A stretch of 64,000 nt of DNA from Acidobacteriota bacterium (GCA_030697165.1 JAUYQQ010000016.1:123638-187637), one strand, 5' to 3'. Counted from the stretch's first letter, positions 29,172 to 49,213 are shown. Numbers and translations: made by a program. The notes: generated by a model from the sequence alone, not told the origin.

Positions 29172-29176
<5 letters not shown>
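29101..29176. repeat. AT-rich imperfect palindrome of the ACAGGAG...CTCCTGATCTCT family
   Basis: Arms 29101-29124 and 29153-29176; 3 of the 5 arm mismatches would be G-U pairs in a plus-strand transcript. Confidence 0.8.
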
Positions 29177-31604
<2,428 letters not shown>

Positions 31605-39556: not shown

Positions 39557-40105
39557 TTATTTCTTCTTTGCGATCTTCAGTTCGCCGAGCTTGGCGACCA
39601 TATCGGGACCAGCCGACGTGGCCTTCACCGCGGTGTCGATGTGGAGGATCTTTCCGTCCGGGTCGATGTAGAACGTCCACCGCCGCGCCATGCCGGTGGC
39701 GCCGAGGACGCCGTACTTGGCGCCGATCTCCTTGGTGACATCGCTCAGGATCGGATAGTCCGCCTCGTGCATCTGGGCGAACTTCGTGTTGTCCTCAATC
39801 GCGTCCGTGCTGATCATGTAGTACGCGACGTTGTACTGCCGGATGAGATCGCCGCTCTCACGGAGCGACTTGCATTCGGCCGTTCAACCACCGGTAAAGG
39901 CTTTCGGGAACCACGCGAGTACCACCGCCTGCTTGCCCTTCGACTCGGCGAGCGTGTGGGTCTTACCATCCGATCCGGGTGCCGAGAACGCGGGGGCCAT
40001 GTCACCAACCTTCAATTCCGCTGGTGCCTGGGCCATGCCCGCCGCGCTCGTCACCAGGCTCAAGGCGGCGCCGACGCCAATCTTGAGCCATGACTTCATA
40101 CGCAT
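39557..40105 (-). CDS. Secreted peroxiredoxin (AhpC/TSA-Bcp-like) with in-frame TGA (39884-39886) at the peroxidatic Cys position; candidate selenoprotein
   Basis: ORFs 39884..40240 and 39557..39817 are in the same frame. Read-through gives ...VVLAWFPKAFTGG-TGA-TAECKSLRESGDLIRQYNVAYYMISTD.... GGAGGA Shine-Dalgarno before ATG 40105; signal peptide MRMKSWLKIGVGAALSLVTSAAGMA. Confidence 0.65.
39851..39869 (-). promoter_or_regulatory. Candidate bacterial SECIS-like hairpin downstream of the in-frame UGA
   Basis: Minus-strand RNA GUCGCUC-CGUGA-GAGCGGC: 7-bp stem (one G-U), 5-nt loop containing GU, stem starts 18 nt from the U of UGA. Confidence 0.35.
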
Positions 40106-40160: not shown

Positions 40161-43100
40161 GTGAGAGTTTGGGTGCGACGGGGGCTGGTCATTCCGGCGG
40201 CGATAGCCGCGGGGATGACGTTGGGCGCCCTGTTACTCATTCACACCCCGTGGGCGCGCAGTCGTGCCCTGTCCTGGGCCGGCGATTTCGTCGCCCGCTA
40301 CGACCTGGTACTCAGCGCGGACGCCCTGAGCTACAACGCGCTGACCCGCCGCATTACGCTCACCGGCGTGCGCCTCGCGGCCGAGGGCCACGACGACCGG
40401 CCATTCCTGGTCGCCCAACGCGTCGAAGTCACGCTGCCGTGGATGGTGTTCCGCGGCCGCTTCGCCATCGATCATCTCAGCATCGACAACGGCATTGTCG
40501 ACATCGTTCGCGACGAGAACGGCGTGACCAACCTGCCGCCGGGCTCTGACCAGCCCACGCCGGAGACGGCGCGCCGCCTCGACCTGCGCGGCCTGACGCT
40601 GCGCGGCCTCGACGTGCAGTACGCCGACCTGGTCCGCGACTGGGGCGTCAAGATTCCGCAGATCGAGTCAGCGCTCACCAGCGGCGCGCTCGGCGCCGAG
40701 GGCGCGTTCGCCGTGCGGGGCCCGCTTGCCGTGCGACTGCGCGAGCGCACCTTGACCATGGCCCCCTTCGACACGGTGATAACCTTCGATGGTTCCGACG
40801 TGACGTTGGCCGACGCCCGGCTGGTCTCGTCGGAACTGAACGCCTTTCTGAGCGGCACGATCCACCGCGTGCTGGATTCGCCAAGCCTGGCCCTCACGCT
40901 CAAGGGCACCGTCGCTCTCGAGCACGCCACCAAATGGATCCCGCCGCCGCCCGTGCCGGTCGGCGGCCTGGTCACCATCGACGGCACCATCGCCGGACCG
41001 ACCAGCGACGTCGTGACGACGCTGCGCGTGTCGAGCAACACGCTCGCGGTCGGGCGCGAGCGCGAGCTCACCCTGTCGGGTCCCGTGCTGGTCACCTTCG
41101 AATCGTTCTCGGGCACGGCGCTCGCCATCGTCCCGCGATCGGGCGGCGAGATTCGCGCCGACTTCAACGTGCCCTGGGGCGGCACCGCGATCAGCACGGC
41201 CACCGCCTCGTGGCGGGCGCTCGACGCGCAAACCGCGCTCGACATGGCCAACGTCACCCCGCAGGCGATTGCCGCCGGTTTCGACGGCAGCGGCACGTTC
41301 GAGTTCGGCGAGCCGCGCCGCTTCGCGATCACCAACCGCGCCACCGGTCGCGCCAAGCGGAACCACGTGGCCATGACCGGCACCCTCCGGGCGACGATCG
41401 TCGGCGACGACTACCGCTTCGATCACAATCACACGCTGCCAGGTGCGGCAATCGAGGGCCGCATGGCGGGCCGCATCAACCGCGATTCGGCGTTGCTGTC
41501 GACCATGACCGGCCCCGCGCATGCGCGGGTGAGCGACGTCGCCACAGCGGCGCAAGGCCTGGCGATGCTGGGGTTTCCGGTCCCCGAGATCGCCGCCGAC
41601 GTGCATGGCGCGATCGACGTGCCCATGACCCTGGCGGGTTCCTACAAGCTGCCGCAGATCGAGACGCAGGTGTCGGGCGATGACGTGGACGTGCCGCTGC
41701 TGGGCCGCGTCCGTCTCACGACGCACCTGGTCGCTGACACCACGCGCGCCGACATTACGAATCTCGAGGTGCGCCAGGGCTCGTCGCTCATCACCGGCAA
41801 CGCGGTCGCCAACATCACCGAGAGCACCTGGACCGGCCAGTTCAACGTCGATGCCCCCCGCGCCGAAGAGTTGCAGGCCGATGTGCCCGAGGCGTGGCGC
41901 GTGGCTGGTCCGCTGACGGTCGGCGCGACGCTTGGCGGCACCTTCGACGTTTACAGGCTCGACACCACCATCACCGGTTCGGCGCTGACGTGGGCCGGGC
42001 AGACCATCGACACCGCGAACGCAAAGGCCGTGGTGACCCCCGATGCCATCGACGTGACGTCGCTCGAACTGCGGCAGGGCGTGGGCTTGCTCGACGGCCG
42101 CGTGCGCTACGCCTGGGAGACCGGCGCGTACGACGCCAGCCTGAAGGGCGACCGGCTGTCGTGGCAGGGCGCCCTGCTTGCGCCCAACGACACGCAGGCC
42201 GTGTTCTCGATGCAGTTCGACGGCAAGGGCACCACTGCCCAGCCGCGTGGGCAGGGGCGCGTGGACTTCTCGTTGACCGGCGGGGACGCCGGCACCCTGA
42301 TCGGCGCGGGTGAAATGACGGCGGACCTGATGGGCGATCACGCGCGCGTCGTCGTCCGGTTGCCCTCGATTGGCGCACTGGTCAACGCCGACGTGGCCAC
42401 CGCCTCGCCTTACGACTACAAGGCGACGGCCATCCTCGATCGCCTCGAACTGGCGAGGCTGGCGCCGTTCCTCGACGCCGTCGAATCCGAGATCCTTGGC
42501 TTCGCCAGCGGCACGGTGACGGCGTCGGGCCGCTTCGCCGACGCCCGCGACCGCGTCGCCATTGTCAACCTGACCGAGCTCGACGCCGGGATTGGCGGCG
42601 TGCCCGTGAGCTTGAACGCGCCGGTCCACGTCGTGTTGCGCGGCGACGATGTGACGCTCAAGGACCTGAATGTCCGCATCGGCGCGGGCCGGTTGACGGC
42701 GGCGGGTGAGTGGAACACGAAACTCGACGGTGCGTTCCAGGGACAGTTCATCGGCGAGTTCCAGGACGCCATCCGCATGGGCCGCGCCGTGGGCGTGCCG
42801 GTCACCTTCGACGGCTCGGGCCCGCTGTCGTTGGACCTCCGATCGAACGGCAGCCGCGCCGGCACCCTCGCGACGCTGTCGCTCAAGGCCGGCACCTTCA
42901 ACTGGGGCGGGGGTCCGCCAGCGGTCACGAACCTGAACCTCGAGGCCGTGCTGCAGGGCGAGTCGCTGACCGTGTCGCGGCTCTCCGGCGATGTGGCCAG
43001 CGGCGGCGTGGTGGGCAGCTTTGCCGCCACCGCGCAAGCCGAGGTCCCGGTCCTCGAACTGTCGGCCATCGTCGGTGAGCTCACCGTCGATGCCGCCAAG

Positions 43101-46100
43101 TTCACGTTCTCTGGGATCCCGGTCGAGCAGCAGCGGCCGTCGCGGGTCGAGTTCGCGCGCGGTTCGCTGGCGGTCGCCGACATCTCGTGGATGGTGGCCA
43201 ACAACCCGCTGGTGATTGACGGGTCGGTGGGCTTTGCCGCCGAGGACCCGCCGCTCGACCTGTCGGTGCAAGGCCTGATTGACCTGCGCGTGCTGTCGGC
43301 CTTCGTCAGCACGCTGGCGTTCGACGGCAACGCCAACCTCAACACCTTGATCGGCGGCACCGTGTCGCGCCCGCTGTTCGACGGCGAGGTGGCCCTGCGG
43401 GACGCCGAAATCGCGATCGCGGAACCGCGCCTGGTGCTGTCGGACCTCAACGGAGTGATCCTGCTCGACGGCCAGCGCGTAGTGCTCGACGGCATTAGCG
43501 GCCTGGCCAATGGTGGCACGCTGGGCCTTGACGGATCGCTGCAGGTGTCGGGCGTCGACGCCATCGACGGCGTCGTCAACATCCAGGCCAAGGGCGTCGC
43601 GATCGAACTGATCGACGGGCTGCGCAGCGAACTGGACGCGCTGATCACGTTTCGCCCCGACCCCAAGGGGCCGACCATCACCGGCGACATCCGGGTGGTG
43701 CAGAGCGCCTACGCCGAAACCATCACGCTCGCGGCATTGGCCCGCCGCGCGACGCTACCGGTCTCGCCAACGCAGCAGCAGCCGTATCTCGATCGCGTGC
43801 GGCTGAACCTGAACGTCACGACCAGCGATGACATGACCGTCGACAACAACTACGGCCGGCTCGCGGCTGCCGTCAACGTGCGTGTCACCGGCACCGCGGC
43901 GGCACCCGGCATGGACGGGCGCATCACGCTGCGCGAAGGTGGCGAGATCTTCCTGGCCGGCCGGACCTTCCGCATCACCCGCGGCGACATTTCGTTCACC
44001 GATCTGCGCCGCATCCGGCCCGAGTTCAACATCGTCGCCGAGGCGCCGCTCGGTGGTGGCGACATGGCCACCCTCACCTTGACCGGGACGCTGGAACGGC
44101 CGTCGATCGACCTGACGTCGGAAGACGGGTCGCGGACGCCGGGCGAGTTGGCGGCACAACTGCTGGGCCAGACCAACACCGGCACCGCGCTCACGCTGCT
44201 GTCGGCCGACCTGCTGGGCGTGACCGGGCGGGCGATTGGCCTCGACACCTTCCGCGTCGAGCGCGGCGAGTTCGAGGATCCCGACTTCCGCGACGACCCG
44301 TCGTTGATCGGCAACGATCGAACGGACCCGACCACGCGCTTGACGCTATCGAAGCGGTTGAGCCGCAAGGTCGAGTTCACGGTGTCGCAGAACTTGCGCG
44401 AGAGCGGCAACACCACCTTCGTCATCAGCTACTACGTGACGCCGACCATCGAGATTCGCGGGTTGTCGCGTGACGACGACACCGCGAGCGTCGGCATTCG
44501 CCATCAGGTGACGTTCGGCGGCGGCGTCGGCCGCAAGCCCACGGAGCTGCGCGTGAAGCAGAAGGTGTCGGCGATTACGTTCGCGGGCGTCGAGCCCGCC
44601 GTTGAGCGGGAGGTGCGCGCCGAGATCTCGCTCGATCCCGGCGACGACTTCGATTTCCTGGTGTTGCAACGCGACGTGGACCGGGTCCGCGATCGCTTCA
44701 AGAAACAGGGCTATTTCGAGGCGCGCGTGCGGACCCGCCGCGTCGACGTGCCTGAGTCAGGCACCGTGGTGGTCGAGTACACGGTGGACCGCGGCCCGCG
44801 CACGGTCCTCGAGGTCATCGGTGCGACCCTGCCGTCGAGCCTCACCGAGGACCTCGAGGAGGCCTGGCATCGCAACGCCTTTGATCAGTTCCTGATCGAC
44901 GATCTCACGCACCGGGTTCGCCGCTACCTGGTCGGCACCAACGAGTTGGGCAGCGTCGTGGTGGGCACGGTCGATCGGCCGCTGCCGAATACCAAGCGGC
45001 TGACCATCGAGGTGACCGAGGGCGTGCGGGTCAGCGGCCGCGAGATTCGGGTCACCGGTCACCAGGCGCTGGACGGGGACCGGCTGCTGGACGCGATCGA
45101 GGCGCAAGGGCTGGACGTAGAGGCGTGGCTCAACCGCAGGCCGGTCGAGGAACTGCTCGTCACCGCCTACCACGCGGCCGGGTACCTCAAGGCCCAGGTG
45201 ACGGGTGGCCCGTTGACCATCGACGGCGACACCGGCGTGCTGCCCATTACCATTGTCGAGGGCCCGCAGACGCAGGTGACGAGTGTCCAGTTCGAGGGCG
45301 TGCCCGAGCGCCGGCTGGCGGCCATCCAGAAGGCCGCCGCTATGCAGACACCTGCGCCGTACGTGGCCACCGAGGTCAGCGCCGCCCGCCTCCGGGTCGA
45401 GGAGCAGTACCGGGGAGACGGCTTCAATGCTGCCGACGTCGAAGTGCTGCCGGAAGTGGCGGCTGACGACACCGTTCGCCTCACGTTCGCGATCACGGAG
45501 GGGCCGCAGCAGGTGCTGCAGGAGGTCGAGACGCGCGGTCTCGAGATCACGCGCGGCGACGTGCTCACCGGCTCGCTGCGCTTCGAGTTGGGCCAGCCAG
45601 TGGATCTCGACGCCTGGGCGGTGGCGCGCAAGCGCCTGTACGACACCAACGTGTTCCGGCTCGTGGACATTCAGGCCGTGCCGGTTGGCGAGCCGGTCGA
45701 TGGCGTTCAGCCGGTGAAGGCCCTGGTGGTGGTGCAGGAGTACCCCCAGTGGACGTTCCGCTATGGCTTTCAGCTGGAAGGCGACCGCGAGCTCAAGCTC
45801 GATGAGTTCACGAGCACCCGCAATGCCGGCGTGGTGGCCGAACTGAAGAACCCGAATCTGTTCGGCCGCGCCCTCACCTTCGGCGCGTTCGGCATGTATC
45901 AGTACGATCGCCAGGACGCAACGCTGTTCCTGGCCACGTCACGGCTGTTCGGCTGGCGGGCCCGGTCGAGCCTGTACGGGTTCTACTCCCGCGATCACAT
46001 TCGCGACGATGACGGGCAGGAGATCGTCGCGATCAACGACGTCCAGGGCTTCAGCGCCGACCAGCGCTGGCGGCCGCGCGGCCTGCAGGTCGTCTACGGC

Positions 46101-46784
46101 TACCGCTTCGAGCGATCGCGGACCTACGACCCCGAACCCGGCAACGACGTGGTGCCGCTCGACTTCGTCAGTAACCTCGCCTCGCTCAGCAGCGCCGCGC
46201 TGTGGGACCGCCGCGACGATCCGCTGGCGCCGGTCAAGGGCACGTTCTCGTCGGCGTCGATCGATCACGCGGCGTCGTGGCTCGGTTCCGACGTCAGCAA
46301 TCGCAAGCTGCTGGTGCAGCAGTACACGTTCGGGTCGCTCGGCCGGGTCGTGTTCGCGTCGCGCGTGCAGTGGGGCAAGAAGTTTGGGCCCGACCCGCTG
46401 TTGCCGAGCGCCCGCTTCAACGCCGGTGGTGCCACCAGCGTGCGCGGCTACGGCGAAGACAGCCTGGGACCGCGCGACTTCTTTGGCCTGCCGCTCGGCG
46501 GCGAAACGCTGCTGGTGCTCAACCAGGAAGTGCGCTTTCCGATCTATCGATGGATCAATGGCGTGAGCTTTGTCGATGCGGGTGACTTGCTGGGCAGTGA
46601 CGAGGCGTTCAGCTGGAGCGCCCTGAAGATTGGCTACGGTGGAGGACTGCGTTTCTCGACGCCGGTCGGCATGCTGCGGGTGGACTACGGTATTCCCGGC
46701 TCGGCCCTGTCCACCGCGACCACCCGGAAGCCCAACAGCCTCAGCGGAGGCCGTTGGTACTTCGGGATTGGGCACATCTTTTAG
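40161..46784 (+). CDS. Giant envelope protein: TamB/AsmA-like N-terminal ~1450 aa (incl. DUF490-type C-terminus) fused to ~5 POTRA repeats and an Omp85 (BamA/TamA-family) beta-barrel
   Basis: Uninterrupted 2207 codons; N-terminal signal anchor GLVIPAAIAAGMTLGALLLI; DUF490-like ...LTGTLERPSIDLTSEDGSRTPGELAAQLLG...VISYYVTPTIEIRGLS...; POTRA-like ~80-aa repeats; barrel motifs SVRGYGEDSLGP, GYGGGLRFSTPVGMLRVDYGIP, terminal ...GIGHIF*. Confidence 0.8.
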   Translation: MRVWVRRGLVIPAAIAAGMTLGALLLIHTPWARSRALSWAGDFVARYDLVLSADALSYNALTRRITLTGVRLAAEGHDDRPFLVAQRVEVTLPWMVFRGRFAIDHLSIDNGIVDIVRDENGVTNLPPGSDQPTPETARRLDLRGLTLRGLDVQYADLVRDWGVKIPQIESALTSGALGAEGAFAVRGPLAVRLRERTLTMAPFDTVITFDGSDVTLADARLVSSELNAFLSGTIHRVLDSPSLALTLKGTVALEHATKWIPPPPVPVGGLVTIDGTIAGPTSDVVTTLRVSSNTLAVGRERELTLSGPVLVTFESFSGTALAIVPRSGGEIRADFNVPWGGTAISTATASWRALDAQTALDMANVTPQAIAAGFDGSGTFEFGEPRRFAITNRATGRAKRNHVAMTGTLRATIVGDDYRFDHNHTLPGAAIEGRMAGRINRDSALLSTMTGPAHARVSDVATAAQGLAMLGFPVPEIAADVHGAIDVPMTLAGSYKLPQIETQVSGDDVDVPLLGRVRLTTHLVADTTRADITNLEVRQGSSLITGNAVANITESTWTGQFNVDAPRAEELQADVPEAWRVAGPLTVGATLGGTFDVYRLDTTITGSALTWAGQTIDTANAKAVVTPDAIDVTSLELRQGVGLLDGRVRYAWETGAYDASLKGDRLSWQGALLAPNDTQAVFSMQFDGKGTTAQPRGQGRVDFSLTGGDAGTLIGAGEMTADLMGDHARVVVRLPSIGALVNADVATASPYDYKATAILDRLELARLAPFLDAVESEILGFASGTVTASGRFADARDRVAIVNLTELDAGIGGVPVSLNAPVHVVLRGDDVTLKDLNVRIGAGRLTAAGEWNTKLDGAFQGQFIGEFQDAIRMGRAVGVPVTFDGSGPLSLDLRSNGSRAGTLATLSLKAGTFNWGGGPPAVTNLNLEAVLQGESLTVSRLSGDVASGGVVGSFAATAQAEVPVLELSAIVGELTVDAAKFTFSGIPVEQQRPSRVEFARGSLAVADISWMVANNPLVIDGSVGFAAEDPPLDLSVQGLIDLRVLSAFVSTLAFDGNANLNTLIGGTVSRPLFDGEVALRDAEIAIAEPRLVLSDLNGVILLDGQRVVLDGISGLANGGTLGLDGSLQVSGVDAIDGVVNIQAKGVAIELIDGLRSELDALITFRPDPKGPTITGDIRVVQSAYAETITLAALARRATLPVSPTQQQPYLDRVRLNLNVTTSDDMTVDNNYGRLAAAVNVRVTGTAAAPGMDGRITLREGGEIFLAGRTFRITRGDISFTDLRRIRPEFNIVAEAPLGGGDMATLTLTGTLERPSIDLTSEDGSRTPGELAAQLLGQTNTGTALTLLSADLLGVTGRAIGLDTFRVERGEFEDPDFRDDPSLIGNDRTDPTTRLTLSKRLSRKVEFTVSQNLRESGNTTFVISYYVTPTIEIRGLSRDDDTASVGIRHQVTFGGGVGRKPTELRVKQKVSAITFAGVEPAVEREVRAEISLDPGDDFDFLVLQRDVDRVRDRFKKQGYFEARVRTRRVDVPESGTVVVEYTVDRGPRTVLEVIGATLPSSLTEDLEEAWHRNAFDQFLIDDLTHRVRRYLVGTNELGSVVVGTVDRPLPNTKRLTIEVTEGVRVSGREIRVTGHQALDGDRLLDAIEAQGLDVEAWLNRRPVEELLVTAYHAAGYLKAQVTGGPLTIDGDTGVLPITIVEGPQTQVTSVQFEGVPERRLAAIQKAAAMQTPAPYVATEVSAARLRVEEQYRGDGFNAADVEVLPEVAADDTVRLTFAITEGPQQVLQEVETRGLEITRGDVLTGSLRFELGQPVDLDAWAVARKRLYDTNVFRLVDIQAVPVGEPVDGVQPVKALVVVQEYPQWTFRYGFQLEGDRELKLDEFTSTRNAGVVAELKNPNLFGRALTFGAFGMYQYDRQDATLFLATSRLFGWRARSSLYGFYSRDHIRDDDGQEIVAINDVQGFSADQRWRPRGLQVVYGYRFERSRTYDPEPGNDVVPLDFVSNLASLSSAALWDRRDDPLAPVKGTFSSASIDHAASWLGSDVSNRKLLVQQYTFGSLGRVVFASRVQWGKKFGPDPLLPSARFNAGGATSVRGYGEDSLGPRDFFGLPLGGETLLVLNQEVRFPIYRWINGVSFVDAGDLLGSDEAFSWSALKIGYGGGLRFSTPVGMLRVDYGIPGSALSTATTRKPNSLSGGRWYFGIGHIF

Positions 46785-46924: not shown

Positions 46925-47548
46925 TCATTTCAAGCTGCGCATAATCGCCTGCACCGCCTGGCGCTCGGGCGCTTCAGGGGCCAGGCGCAGGAACGCTTCG
47001 AAGTGCTCGGCGGCCTTCGGCAGCTGGCGTTGGCGCTGGGCCGCGAGGGCCGCGTAGTAATGCGCGTAGGCCAGGTCGGGCTTCAACTCGAGGGCGCGGT
47101 TGAACGCCGGCGTCGCCGTGCCCCAGTCGCTGCCTTTGCTCGCCGACAGCCCGAGTTGATAGAACGCGAATGGGTTCTCGCCGTCGGTTTGCGTGGCTCG
47201 GCGCGCGAGCTCGACCGCGCGGCCCGCGTCGTTGGCGGCGAGTGCTTCGCCAGACTCGCCGACGAGGCTCCAGGCCGGACCGTTCCCCTTGAGGCGCGCG
47301 AACTCGGCGGCCACCCCTTCCATGTTGTTGAGCTTGAGCAACGCCTGCGCCGCCAGGTAGGTCGACGCGGGGTCGCCGTCACGGGCAGCCTCGACCACCT
47401 GCTCGTAATTGCCCGACTGGAACAGCCGCTGGACTTCGGGCTTCTGCTCCGCCGCGGCCGAAATTACCGGCGCGCCGGGCACAATCCACACGCCCAGGGC
47501 GAGCATTGCCGCGAAAAGCGTCCGGTTTTGTGTGCACATTGACTTCAT
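46925..47548 (-). CDS. Secreted TPR-like repeat protein
   Basis: ATG 47548 MKSMCTQNRTLFAAMLALGVWIV signal; helical repeat segments (...AFNRALELKPDLAYAHYYAALAAQRQRQLPKAAEHFEAFLRLAP...). Confidence 0.6.
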   Translation of the reverse strand: MKSMCTQNRTLFAAMLALGVWIVPGAPVISAAAEQKPEVQRLFQSGNYEQVVEAARDGDPASTYLAAQALLKLNNMEGVAAEFARLKGNGPAWSLVGESGEALAANDAGRAVELARRATQTDGENPFAFYQLGLSASKGSDWGTATPAFNRALELKPDLAYAHYYAALAAQRQRQLPKAAEHFEAFLRLAPEAPERQAVQAIMRSLK

Positions 47549-47728: not shown

Positions 47729-49213
47729 ATGTCAGATCAAAGACTGAAGATTGCCGTTTTCATCGATTTCGACAACGTCGAAATCGGGGTGAAGACGACC
47801 CTCGGGCTGCCCTTCGATATCGGCGCCGTGCTCGAGGCGATCAAGGAACGTGGTGAGATCATCACCAAGGTCGCCTACGGCGACTGGAAGCGGTCCGGCG
47901 ACTACGGCCGCGCCATGGCCCAGCACGCCGTGCGTCTGGTGCAGCGCGTGCCGACGCCCGGCGGCGACAAGAACGGCGCCGACATCAACCTCGCGCTCGA
48001 CGCCCTCGAAATGGCGTTCACGCATTCCCACATCAACGCCTTCGTCATCGTCGGCGGCGACAGCGACTTCATCACGCTGGTCGAGAAGCTGAAGCAGTAC
48101 GACCGCAAGGTGTTCGTGGTCGGCGGCCGCGCCTTCACCAGCCAGGTGATGCAGAAGAACTGCACCGAGTTCATCGCCTACGAGAACGTCGTGCCCGATC
48201 GCCGCCCCAGCCAGCCGCGGCCCGAGCGCGGCAGCGGCGAGCGGCAGCCGCGCCAGCAGGGCAGCGGCACGCAGCCAATCGAGCAGTCGGTGGCGCTCGT
48301 CAAGCGCGCGCTCAAGGTGCTGGCCGACCGCGAGGTCTCGCCGCAACTGGGCCTGCTCAAGAGCACGCTGTTGCAGCTCGACTCGTCGTTCTCGGAACGC
48401 GACTACGGCGTCGGCAGCTTCCGCGATTTCGCCGACAAGCTGGCCAAGCAGGGCATTGTCACGCTGAAGCACCAGGGCCGCAGCACGCTCGTGGAGTTGA
48501 ATGAAGGCGACGCGAGCGTGGTGGAGACCGCGGCCGCAGCCCCCATGATAGTGCTGACCGATGTTTCGAGCGAGACCATCTCCGCATCGCGCGAAGCCGG
48601 CCGTCGCGCCGCGCGCGAACTGCTGGAGCAGCCCGACCCCGGTCCCGGCGCGGCCGACCTGGACGACGAGAAGGAAACCCGCCCGGCGCCGACCGAGCCG
48701 GCGTCGCTTGGCGACGGCGTCGCCCTGGTGCGCCGCCTCCTGGCTGAAGCGGCGACGCCGCCGCGCTGGCCGATGTATCCGCGGCAGTTCAAGCAGTTCC
48801 TGAAGGCCGCGCAACCGGACTTCGACGAGCGCCGCTACGGGTCGATCGCCGACCTGATGCGCGCGTGCCAGAAGGACGGCATCCTGCGTCTCGAACGCGA
48901 CCGCCAGGGTGGCCTGCGCGTGTTCGCCAACGGCGCCACCGCGCGCGCGACGGTTCCCCACGGGTGGGGCCTCGTCGTGAACAACACGCAGCCACCGGTT
49001 GAGTCGCTCGAGTCGATCGAGCCGTCGCTGCTGGTCGAGCCGCTGCCGCCGGCGGTGGCCGAGCCGATCGCGGAGCCGGTTGACGTCGACGGCAACGTCG
49101 AAGCGACGCCGAAGACCGCCGCCAAGGCCAGGAAAGCGCCACGCGCGAAGAAGACCGCCGCGCCCGCCAAGGCCGAGAAGAAGAAGGCCGCGCCCCGCAA
49201 GAAGAAGGCGTAG
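47729..49213 (+). CDS. NYN (LabA/DUF88-like PIN-fold nuclease) domain protein with two OST-HTH/LOTUS-like modules and a Lys/Ala/Pro-rich basic tail
   Basis: KIAVFIDFDNVEIG...GADINLALDALEMAF...NAFVIVGGDSDFITLVEKLKQYDRKVFVVG (NYN); two ~70-aa ...LKSTLLQLDSSFSERDYGVGSFRDFADKL... / ...FKQFLKAAQPDFDERRYGSIADLMRAC... modules; tail KTAAKARKAPRAKKTAAPAKAEKKKAAPRKKKA. Confidence 0.7.
   Translation: MSDQRLKIAVFIDFDNVEIGVKTTLGLPFDIGAVLEAIKERGEIITKVAYGDWKRSGDYGRAMAQHAVRLVQRVPTPGGDKNGADINLALDALEMAFTHSHINAFVIVGGDSDFITLVEKLKQYDRKVFVVGGRAFTSQVMQKNCTEFIAYENVVPDRRPSQPRPERGSGERQPRQQGSGTQPIEQSVALVKRALKVLADREVSPQLGLLKSTLLQLDSSFSERDYGVGSFRDFADKLAKQGIVTLKHQGRSTLVELNEGDASVVETAAAAPMIVLTDVSSETISASREAGRRAARELLEQPDPGPGAADLDDEKETRPAPTEPASLGDGVALVRRLLAEAATPPRWPMYPRQFKQFLKAAQPDFDERRYGSIADLMRACQKDGILRLERDRQGGLRVFANGATARATVPHGWGLVVNNTQPPVESLESIEPSLLVEPLPPAVAEPIAEPVDVDGNVEATPKTAAKARKAPRAKKTAAPAKAEKKKAAPRKKKA

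Follow-up and report, generated by a model that had tools for sequence, protein, structure and literature searches.

A 64,000-nucleotide stretch of the genome of an Acidobacteriota bacterium (GCA_030697165.1, JAUYQQ010000016.1:123638-187637; hereafter the window), a soil organism of the order Vicinamibacterales, carries one gene (positions 40161-46784, plus strand) in which a TamB-like protein runs without a stop codon into five POTRA domains and a terminal Omp85-type barrel. To our knowledge, TamB and the Omp85-type barrel are separate proteins in all bacteria that have been studied. We propose, with a confidence of roughly 0.7, that the fused product, a chain of about 235 kDa, is a covalent, single-chain form of TAM, the translocation and assembly module, that links both membranes. 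TamB-type bridges and Omp85 barrels have a central part in outer-membrane building in two-membrane bacteria, and their coupling is under active dispute. A natural, ancient and widespread fusion is Rosetta-stone evidence for TamB and Omp85 as one obligate unit, and the covalent joint speaks for a function that tolerates permanent association. Positions given here are those of the window, and amino acid (aa) numbers are counted throughout from nucleotide 40161.

The open reading frame (ORF) comprises 2207 codons and a stop, and its translation is uninterrupted. Most close homologues start with MRRGLV..., at the place of GTG 40173 and not of GTG 40161, and for this reason GTG 40173 is probably the start, with a product of 2203 aa. 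The first structural element is the predicted signal-anchor helix GLVIPAAIAAGMTLGALLLI (aa 8-27, 40182-40241, plus strand, as are all parts of the ORF), which is preceded by Arg-Arg. A hydropathy scan found hydrophobic 19-mer windows at aa 7-29 only, so that aa 8-27 is the sole hydrophobic segment of the protein; it is kept in homologues and coincides with a helix in the AlphaFold2 (AF2) model of the N-terminal part. An AsmA/TamB-like all-beta body, putatively periplasmic and with a predicted beta-taco lipid groove, follows (aa 28-1326, 40242-44138); it was assigned from AF2, Foldseek, weak Pfam matches and hhalign. The AF2 model of the first 1100 residues counted from GTG 40173, built on a diverse family alignment, reached a predicted local distance difference test score (pLDDT) of 88.1 and displayed the N-terminal helix and then about 70 strands. 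Its best Foldseek matches in the PDB were the lipid-binding beta sheets of ApoB100 and LPD-3/BLTP1, with the low TM scores that are expected for long curved folds.

The C-terminal part of the TamB-like half is recognizable at the level of sequence profiles. The Pfam TamB family (PF04357, the former DUF490) matched aa 1114-1450 (43500-44510) at 96 bits (cut-off 22.4; 3.7e-27), and hhalign placed the family profile colinear with residues 636-1249 of Escherichia coli TamB (probability 97.5). Within this region, AF2 secondary structure defines a putative docking module of two helices and six strands (aa 1327-1452, 44139-44516). The last strand of the module, IRHQVTF (aa 1446-1452, 44496-44516), is beta-signal-like and aligns both with the beta-signal strand that closes E. 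coli TamB at its C-terminus (..LLYQFEF before the stop) and with the end of a split TamB discussed below (..IRFRFEFR before the stop). In the fused protein this strand is internal and not at a free C-terminus, with the linker and 755 further residues after it.

The linker, GGVGRKPTELRVKQK (aa 1453-1467, 44517-44561), is a polar segment of 15 aa that has low confidence in AF2, is predicted to be disordered and exposed, and is rich in Arg, Lys and Pro; it holds no hydrophobic segment, and no signal peptide is left before POTRA1. BamA, in contrast, is free-standing and has a cleavable signal peptide of its own. The five POTRA domains (aa 1468-1543, 1549-1619, 1626-1699, 1705-1779 and 1783-1860; 44562-45740) were delimited by AF2, Pfam, hhalign and Foldseek, the Pfam POTRA family (PF07244) being matched at 2.9e-20. 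The 16-strand Omp85 barrel (aa 1864-2207, 45750-46781) is defined by the AF2 strand count and by Pfam Omp85 (PF01103, aa 1899-2207; 7.3e-36, 124.7 bits, cut-off 24); it contains the loop-6 motif VRGY at aa 2094-2097 (46440-46451) and ends in ..GHIF with a terminal Phe. The AF2 secondary structure of aa 1101-2207 accordingly reads as two helices and six strands, the linker, five beta-alpha-alpha-beta-beta units and 16 barrel strands. Foldseek aligned the C-terminal half over full-length BamA (E 1e-29, about 840 columns); its alignment with TamA was less complete. In hhalign the family profile matched E. coli BamA residues 125-809 (probability 99.6, E 8e-24), colinear from POTRA2 through the barrel, and matched TamA at E 1e-16. 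A sequence-only reading of the window had proposed this layout: one unbroken frame of 2207 codons, an N-terminal signal anchor, a DUF490 region, five POTRA repeats (~44560-45740) and a barrel (~45740-46784). The profile runs and predicted structures bear it out, its domain limits lie within a few codons of ours, and every motif it quoted (IRHQVTF, VRGY and the terminal GHIF) is present.

The fusion recurs throughout a large family. A word-indexed protein search returned 190 significant matches, and the 120 clusters listed are 2186-2229 aa long, 62-93% identical and 99-100% colinear with the query; all 120 carry TamB, POTRA and Omp85 domains, and those with names are labelled Vicinamibacterales. 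An exhaustive HMMER search with aa 1101-2207 as query reached further: of the best 150 representatives of clusters at 50% identity, about 137 span the junction with a single continuous match, at identities down to 30%, and 95 are longer than 2000 aa. A survey of one genome per GTDB species recovered 77 loci, almost all labelled Vicinamibacterales or Acidobacteriota. In 56 of these the gene is one ORF of 2200 codons or more, in 16 it is cut by contig ends and in five it is interrupted; the five breaks are scattered, lie away from the junction and all come from one series of long-read metagenome-assembled genomes (MAGs). Furthermore, a search that took a distant member's Omp85 part as its seed extended the fused family to other Acidobacteriota, through partial proteins named Bryobacteraceae and Korobacteraceae. 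Because the architecture is kept across so large a family, the possibility raised with the sequence-only reading that resequencing might resolve the ORF into two genes fails, and the fusion is real.

Conservation is uneven along the chain. When three loci (L054, L055 and L059) were compared with the window, the fused protein was 38-40% identical where the syntenic GyrB was 83-85% identical; the taco body was least conserved (22-28%), and the docking module, POTRA5 and the barrel were most conserved (36-40%). Of 121 close homologues, 119 have a junction of 36 residues between two anchor columns. In the family at large, divergent members included, the linker measures 14-22 aa at a mean identity of 21%, and it has no conserved cleavage motif. 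Since length is held while sequence varies, the linker appears to be a tether of defined reach and not a processing site. Two sets of shorter proteins were examined as possible unfused forms and rejected. Proteins of about 740 aa that start exactly at POTRA1 (P0135, P0186, P0248, P0261 and P0264) were considered as unfused Omp85s; they are truncated gene calls, as they have no signal peptide and their first residues belong to the linker or to the last strand of TamB. Two short forms, P0281 (966 aa) and P0292 (809 aa), were considered as real splits and are read as frameshift errors, because they lie on long-read contigs in which neighbouring genes are also broken.

Genuinely unfused Omp85 relatives are separated from the fused family by an abrupt gap in E-values: in the search seeded with the distant member's Omp85 part, fused proteins scored 1e-114 or better and unfused proteins 4e-59 or worse. 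They are of two kinds, tamB-omp85 pairs and operons of the order omp85, SurA_N-like gene, tamB. The best of them sit directly 3' of tamB. In one pair (L082), a TamB of 1306 aa, with the end ..IRFRFEFR aligned above, overlaps by 32 nt an Omp85 of 927 aa that has its own signal peptide, and a TPR gene comes next; in another (L085) tamB and omp85 are 2 nt apart, and a third locus (L086) probably has the same arrangement. These pairs resemble the tamB-bamA operon of Borrelia (PMC5582053, PMC11361582), and share with the fusion the gene order, a many-POTRA Omp85 and a TamB with the same ..IRFxFxF-type end strand. Unlike the fusion, they encode two proteins, a TamB with a free C-terminus and an Omp85 of 905-927 aa, longer than the fused moiety, with its own signal peptide. 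The order TamB then Omp85, which the sequence-only reading had described as reversed relative to tamA-tamB, is indeed reversed with respect to proteobacteria but is not unique: besides the pairs in L082 and L085, an evolutionary survey reports it in spirochaetes (PMC4494059).

The second kind of relative comes from the same phylum. The loci L081 and L083 encode acidobacterial Omp85s of 962-994 aa and TamBs of 1336-1367 aa in omp85, SurA_N-like, tamB operons, an arrangement described for Acidobacteria as a 'duplicated BamA' by Heinz et al. 2015 (PMC4494059). Like the fused moiety on our reading, the Omp85 of these operons is a TamB-associated BamA paralogue distinct from the canonical BamA; unlike the fusion, they have the opposite gene order, a chaperone-like gene in between and separate proteins. 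In a rough neighbour-joining tree without support values, all fused Omp85 moieties formed one clade, and the Omp85s of L081 and L083 fell in a different one. The coupled tamB-omp85 pairs look like the precursor state of the fusion. The fused gene would then have originated once, from a translationally coupled pair in which the stop codon of tamB and the signal peptide of Omp85 were lost. Within a major soil phylum, the fusion fills in a series of evolutionary states: split operon, coupled genes and fusion.

The reading that we favour takes the E. coli TAM as its model (PDB 9xdc and 23sp; PMC12800296, PMC13119328). Lipid densities occupy the groove of E. coli TamB, its six C-terminal strands form a hybrid barrel with strand beta1 of TamA, and DUF490 has been proposed as the Omp85-docking domain (PMC12800296, PMC13119328); the C-terminal module there also consists of two helices and six strands (PMC12800296). 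Two cryo-electron microscopy studies of 2026 disagree on whether the hybrid barrel is transient or permanent. By analogy, the signal-anchor helix of the fused protein would keep the N-terminus in the inner membrane, and the AsmA/TamB-type beta groove, about 1300 residues long, would span the periplasm as a bridge-like lipid-transfer conduit that carries phospholipids across it. The C-terminal TamB module, whose helices are amphipathic, would dock at an Omp85 lateral gate. Beyond it, the short flexible linker would lead through the five POTRA domains to the barrel, which the barrel-assembly machinery (BAM) of the cell would put into the outer membrane and which would anchor the far end of the chain there. 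We infer from the sequence, in short, one chain that reaches from an inner-membrane anchor to an outer-membrane barrel. It would work like TamA-TamB with a fixed 1:1 stoichiometry and permanent coupling, in anterograde phospholipid delivery, in outer-membrane homeostasis and possibly in the assembly of some outer-membrane proteins. The proposal poses a problem of biogenesis, in that a 235-kDa chain would have to keep its inner-membrane anchor while the opposite end folds into the outer membrane, and it offers structural biologists a single-chain TAM.

The resemblance to E. coli TamA-TamB extends over the putative inner-membrane signal anchor, the long body with its predicted beta groove, the DUF490 module with its two helices, six strands and beta-signal-like end, and an Omp85 partner with POTRA domains, a 16-strand barrel and VRGY in loop 6. 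Unlike TamA-TamB, the fusion is one polypeptide in the order TamB then Omp85 and has five POTRA domains where TamA has three; its docking strand is internal and tethered to POTRA1, its Omp85 part has no signal peptide, and its scores are far below those of the TamA and TamB equivalogs. The TamB partner that accompanies TamA is here present in an extreme form, that of a covalent fusion. In its predicted fold, a long repeating beta groove, the body also resembles the bridge-like lipid transfer proteins (BLTP1/LPD-3, VPS13, YhdP and AsmA), with LPD-3 among the best Foldseek matches; unlike the fusion, none of these proteins is known to be covalently joined to an Omp85 barrel as docking partner.

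Several results weigh against a single-chain TAM. The first concern the identity of the two halves. Pfam matches of the N-terminal region to DUF748 (AsmA-like, aa 4-173) and to YhdP were both weak and under Pfam thresholds, and between the family profile and the N-terminal 640 aa of E. coli TamB hhalign found no significant match (probability 8.6); the AsmA/TamB assignment of the N-terminal half consequently rests on predicted fold and weak matches. The NCBIfam TamB equivalog (NF047952) scored 39.8 bits against a cut-off of 825, the BamA equivalog (TIGR03303, OM_YaeT) 170 bits against 297, and the TamA equivalog (NF047950) 74 bits, over the barrel only, against 625. By this measure the TamB part is not the proteobacterial TamB equivalog. 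The function proposed is assigned by homology with the E. coli TAM, the fused family being represented here by sequence and predicted structure, and the AF2 model of the C-terminal part has a predicted TM score (pTM) of 0.36 and carries no usable inter-domain geometry.

The second concern is the geometry of docking. In E. coli the docking strand pairs with strand beta1 of the barrel; its counterpart here is tied to POTRA1 by about 15 residues. In BamA, POTRA1 is the POTRA domain farthest from the barrel. Because the docking strand is tied so closely to a barrel-distal domain, the E. coli mode of docking may not be possible in cis for the fused protein. The 14-22-residue tether between docking strand and POTRA1 is a hard geometric constraint for any docking model, and three solutions are possible: the five-POTRA arm closes into a ring and places POTRA1 below the gate, the module docks in trans on a different Omp85 or on a second protomer, or the module does something else.

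This constraint gives rise to the first alternative to be weighed, in which the tether blocks the protein's own barrel. The module would then dock on a second Omp85, either canonical BamA or another protomer, and would couple the lipid bridge to BAM or form chains. In another version, the fusion would be the only Omp85 and the only AsmA-like bridge of the cell, a one-protein core of outer-membrane biogenesis. We found no second Omp85 or TamB gene within the 64-kb window or within the ±6-kb flanks of the 77 loci. Taken together we consider these variants unlikely, and we continue to favour a single-chain TAM.

A related and rather improbable alternative holds that the fused Omp85 moiety is the canonical, essential BamA of the organism, the core of BAM with a TamB attached, and not a TamA-like accessory paralogue. 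The feature set of BamA (five POTRA domains, a 16-strand barrel and VRGY/F in loop 6) is present in the predicted structure, hhalign prefers BamA over TamA, Foldseek ranks full-length BamA first, the window and the locus flanks hold no other Omp85 gene, and spirochaete tamB adjoins the sole BamA according to the survey (PMC4494059). However, the BamA score of 170 bits is under the equivalog cut-off, and plain sequence searches of the PDB place the barrel alone nearest to TamA barrels. BamA-like proteins of 750-840 aa group with E. coli BamA in the neighbour-joining tree, apart from the fused clade. The pace of divergence, 38-40% identity against 83-85% for GyrB, is also unlike that of a core BamA, and other Acidobacteria are reported, in the same survey (PMC4494059), to have a canonical BamA alongside a TamB-linked paralogue. 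Fast divergence, the sub-threshold BamA score and the reported acidobacterial paralogue point to an accessory paralogue.

Distinctly improbable, in our judgement, is a third explanation, by which the fusion is a precursor only and a periplasmic protease cuts the linker after export to release separate TamB and Omp85 proteins. A disordered, exposed linker rich in Arg, Lys and Pro would suit such a cut, and the fusion would merely stand in, as an export device, for the lost Omp85 signal peptide. The variable linker sequence without a conserved cleavage motif, at a length held to 14-22 aa, argues the other way and suits a tether. The last explanation, that an error of sequencing or assembly merged two adjacent genes at the junction, as a single-base error could in principle do with the coupled pairs of other lineages, is refuted by comparison: 56 independently assembled genomes and well over a hundred protein clusters share this in-frame junction, its length is the same among close homologues (119/121), no remnant of a signal peptide precedes POTRA1, and the apparent short or split forms (P0135, P0264, P0281 and P0292) are truncated calls or come from frameshift-ridden long-read contigs.

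Annotation pipelines name the fused proteins 'TamB domain-containing protein' or 'BamA/TamB', and the sequences are in that sense already known; their architecture appears not to have been discussed. In the open-access literature and bioRxiv, with the main papers and reviews on TAM evolution included, we found no description of a TamB-Omp85 fusion. The first Vicinamibacteria genomes reportedly postdate the evolutionary survey of 2015. That survey (PMC4494059) does not mention a fusion.

The genes around the fusion form a recurrent neighbourhood. The fused gene has a GC content at third codon positions of 0.89, like adjacent genes, and lies between a divergent gene upstream and a convergent gene downstream; it therefore appears to be monocistronic. 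Its 2207-residue product contains no cysteine. The convergent gene (46925-47548, minus strand) encodes a secreted TPR protein of about 200 aa, and in 70 of the 77 loci this TPR gene adjoins the fused gene, downstream and convergent. A second acidobacterial clade has a homologous TPR gene (E 1e-12; L080, 3505-4113; L084, 3209-3829) that reads in the same direction as the fused gene and lies directly upstream of it, about 10-15 nt away, and a TPR gene also follows the split pair of L082. The TPR protein may be a BamD-like accessory partner, a candidacy based on gene association.

The divergent gene upstream (39557-40105, minus strand) encodes a secreted peroxiredoxin of the AhpC/TSA type whose frame holds a single in-frame TGA (39884-39886) exactly at the position of the peroxidatic Cys (..WFPKAFTGG[TGA]TAECKSL..). 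The codon is TGA in 59 of 59 homologous loci, and a 7-bp GC-rich hairpin (-25.5 kcal/mol, z -1.7) begins about 17 nt 3' of it. The protein is very probably, by these features, a selenocysteine (UxxC) selenoprotein; no tRNA-Sec gene was found within the 64-kb window. Just past the TPR gene lies a gene for a 494-aa protein that joins an NYN nuclease to an OST-HTH/LOTUS domain (47729-49213, plus strand) and that is kept in 63 loci. The next gene encodes a GyrB-like protein of 634 aa, and a GyrA/ParC-like gene is located 18 kb away (29172-31604).

Some records in the survey carry unexpected titles. MAGs titled Acidimicrobiia, Bifidobacteriaceae and Cyanobacteriota (L013, L017, L022, L028, L035, L037, L040 and others) hold the fused gene at 37-65% identity, and those that were cross-checked share the synteny of peroxiredoxin, fusion, TPR, NYN and gyrB genes. 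They look like mislabelled bins and not like spread to other phyla. Finally, the MAG JBBQSP01 contains two copies of the locus (L001 and L007), whose fused proteins share 92% and 74% identity with that of the window; each copy has the same peroxiredoxin and TonB-dependent-receptor neighbours, and a mixed bin of two strains is more likely than a true duplication.

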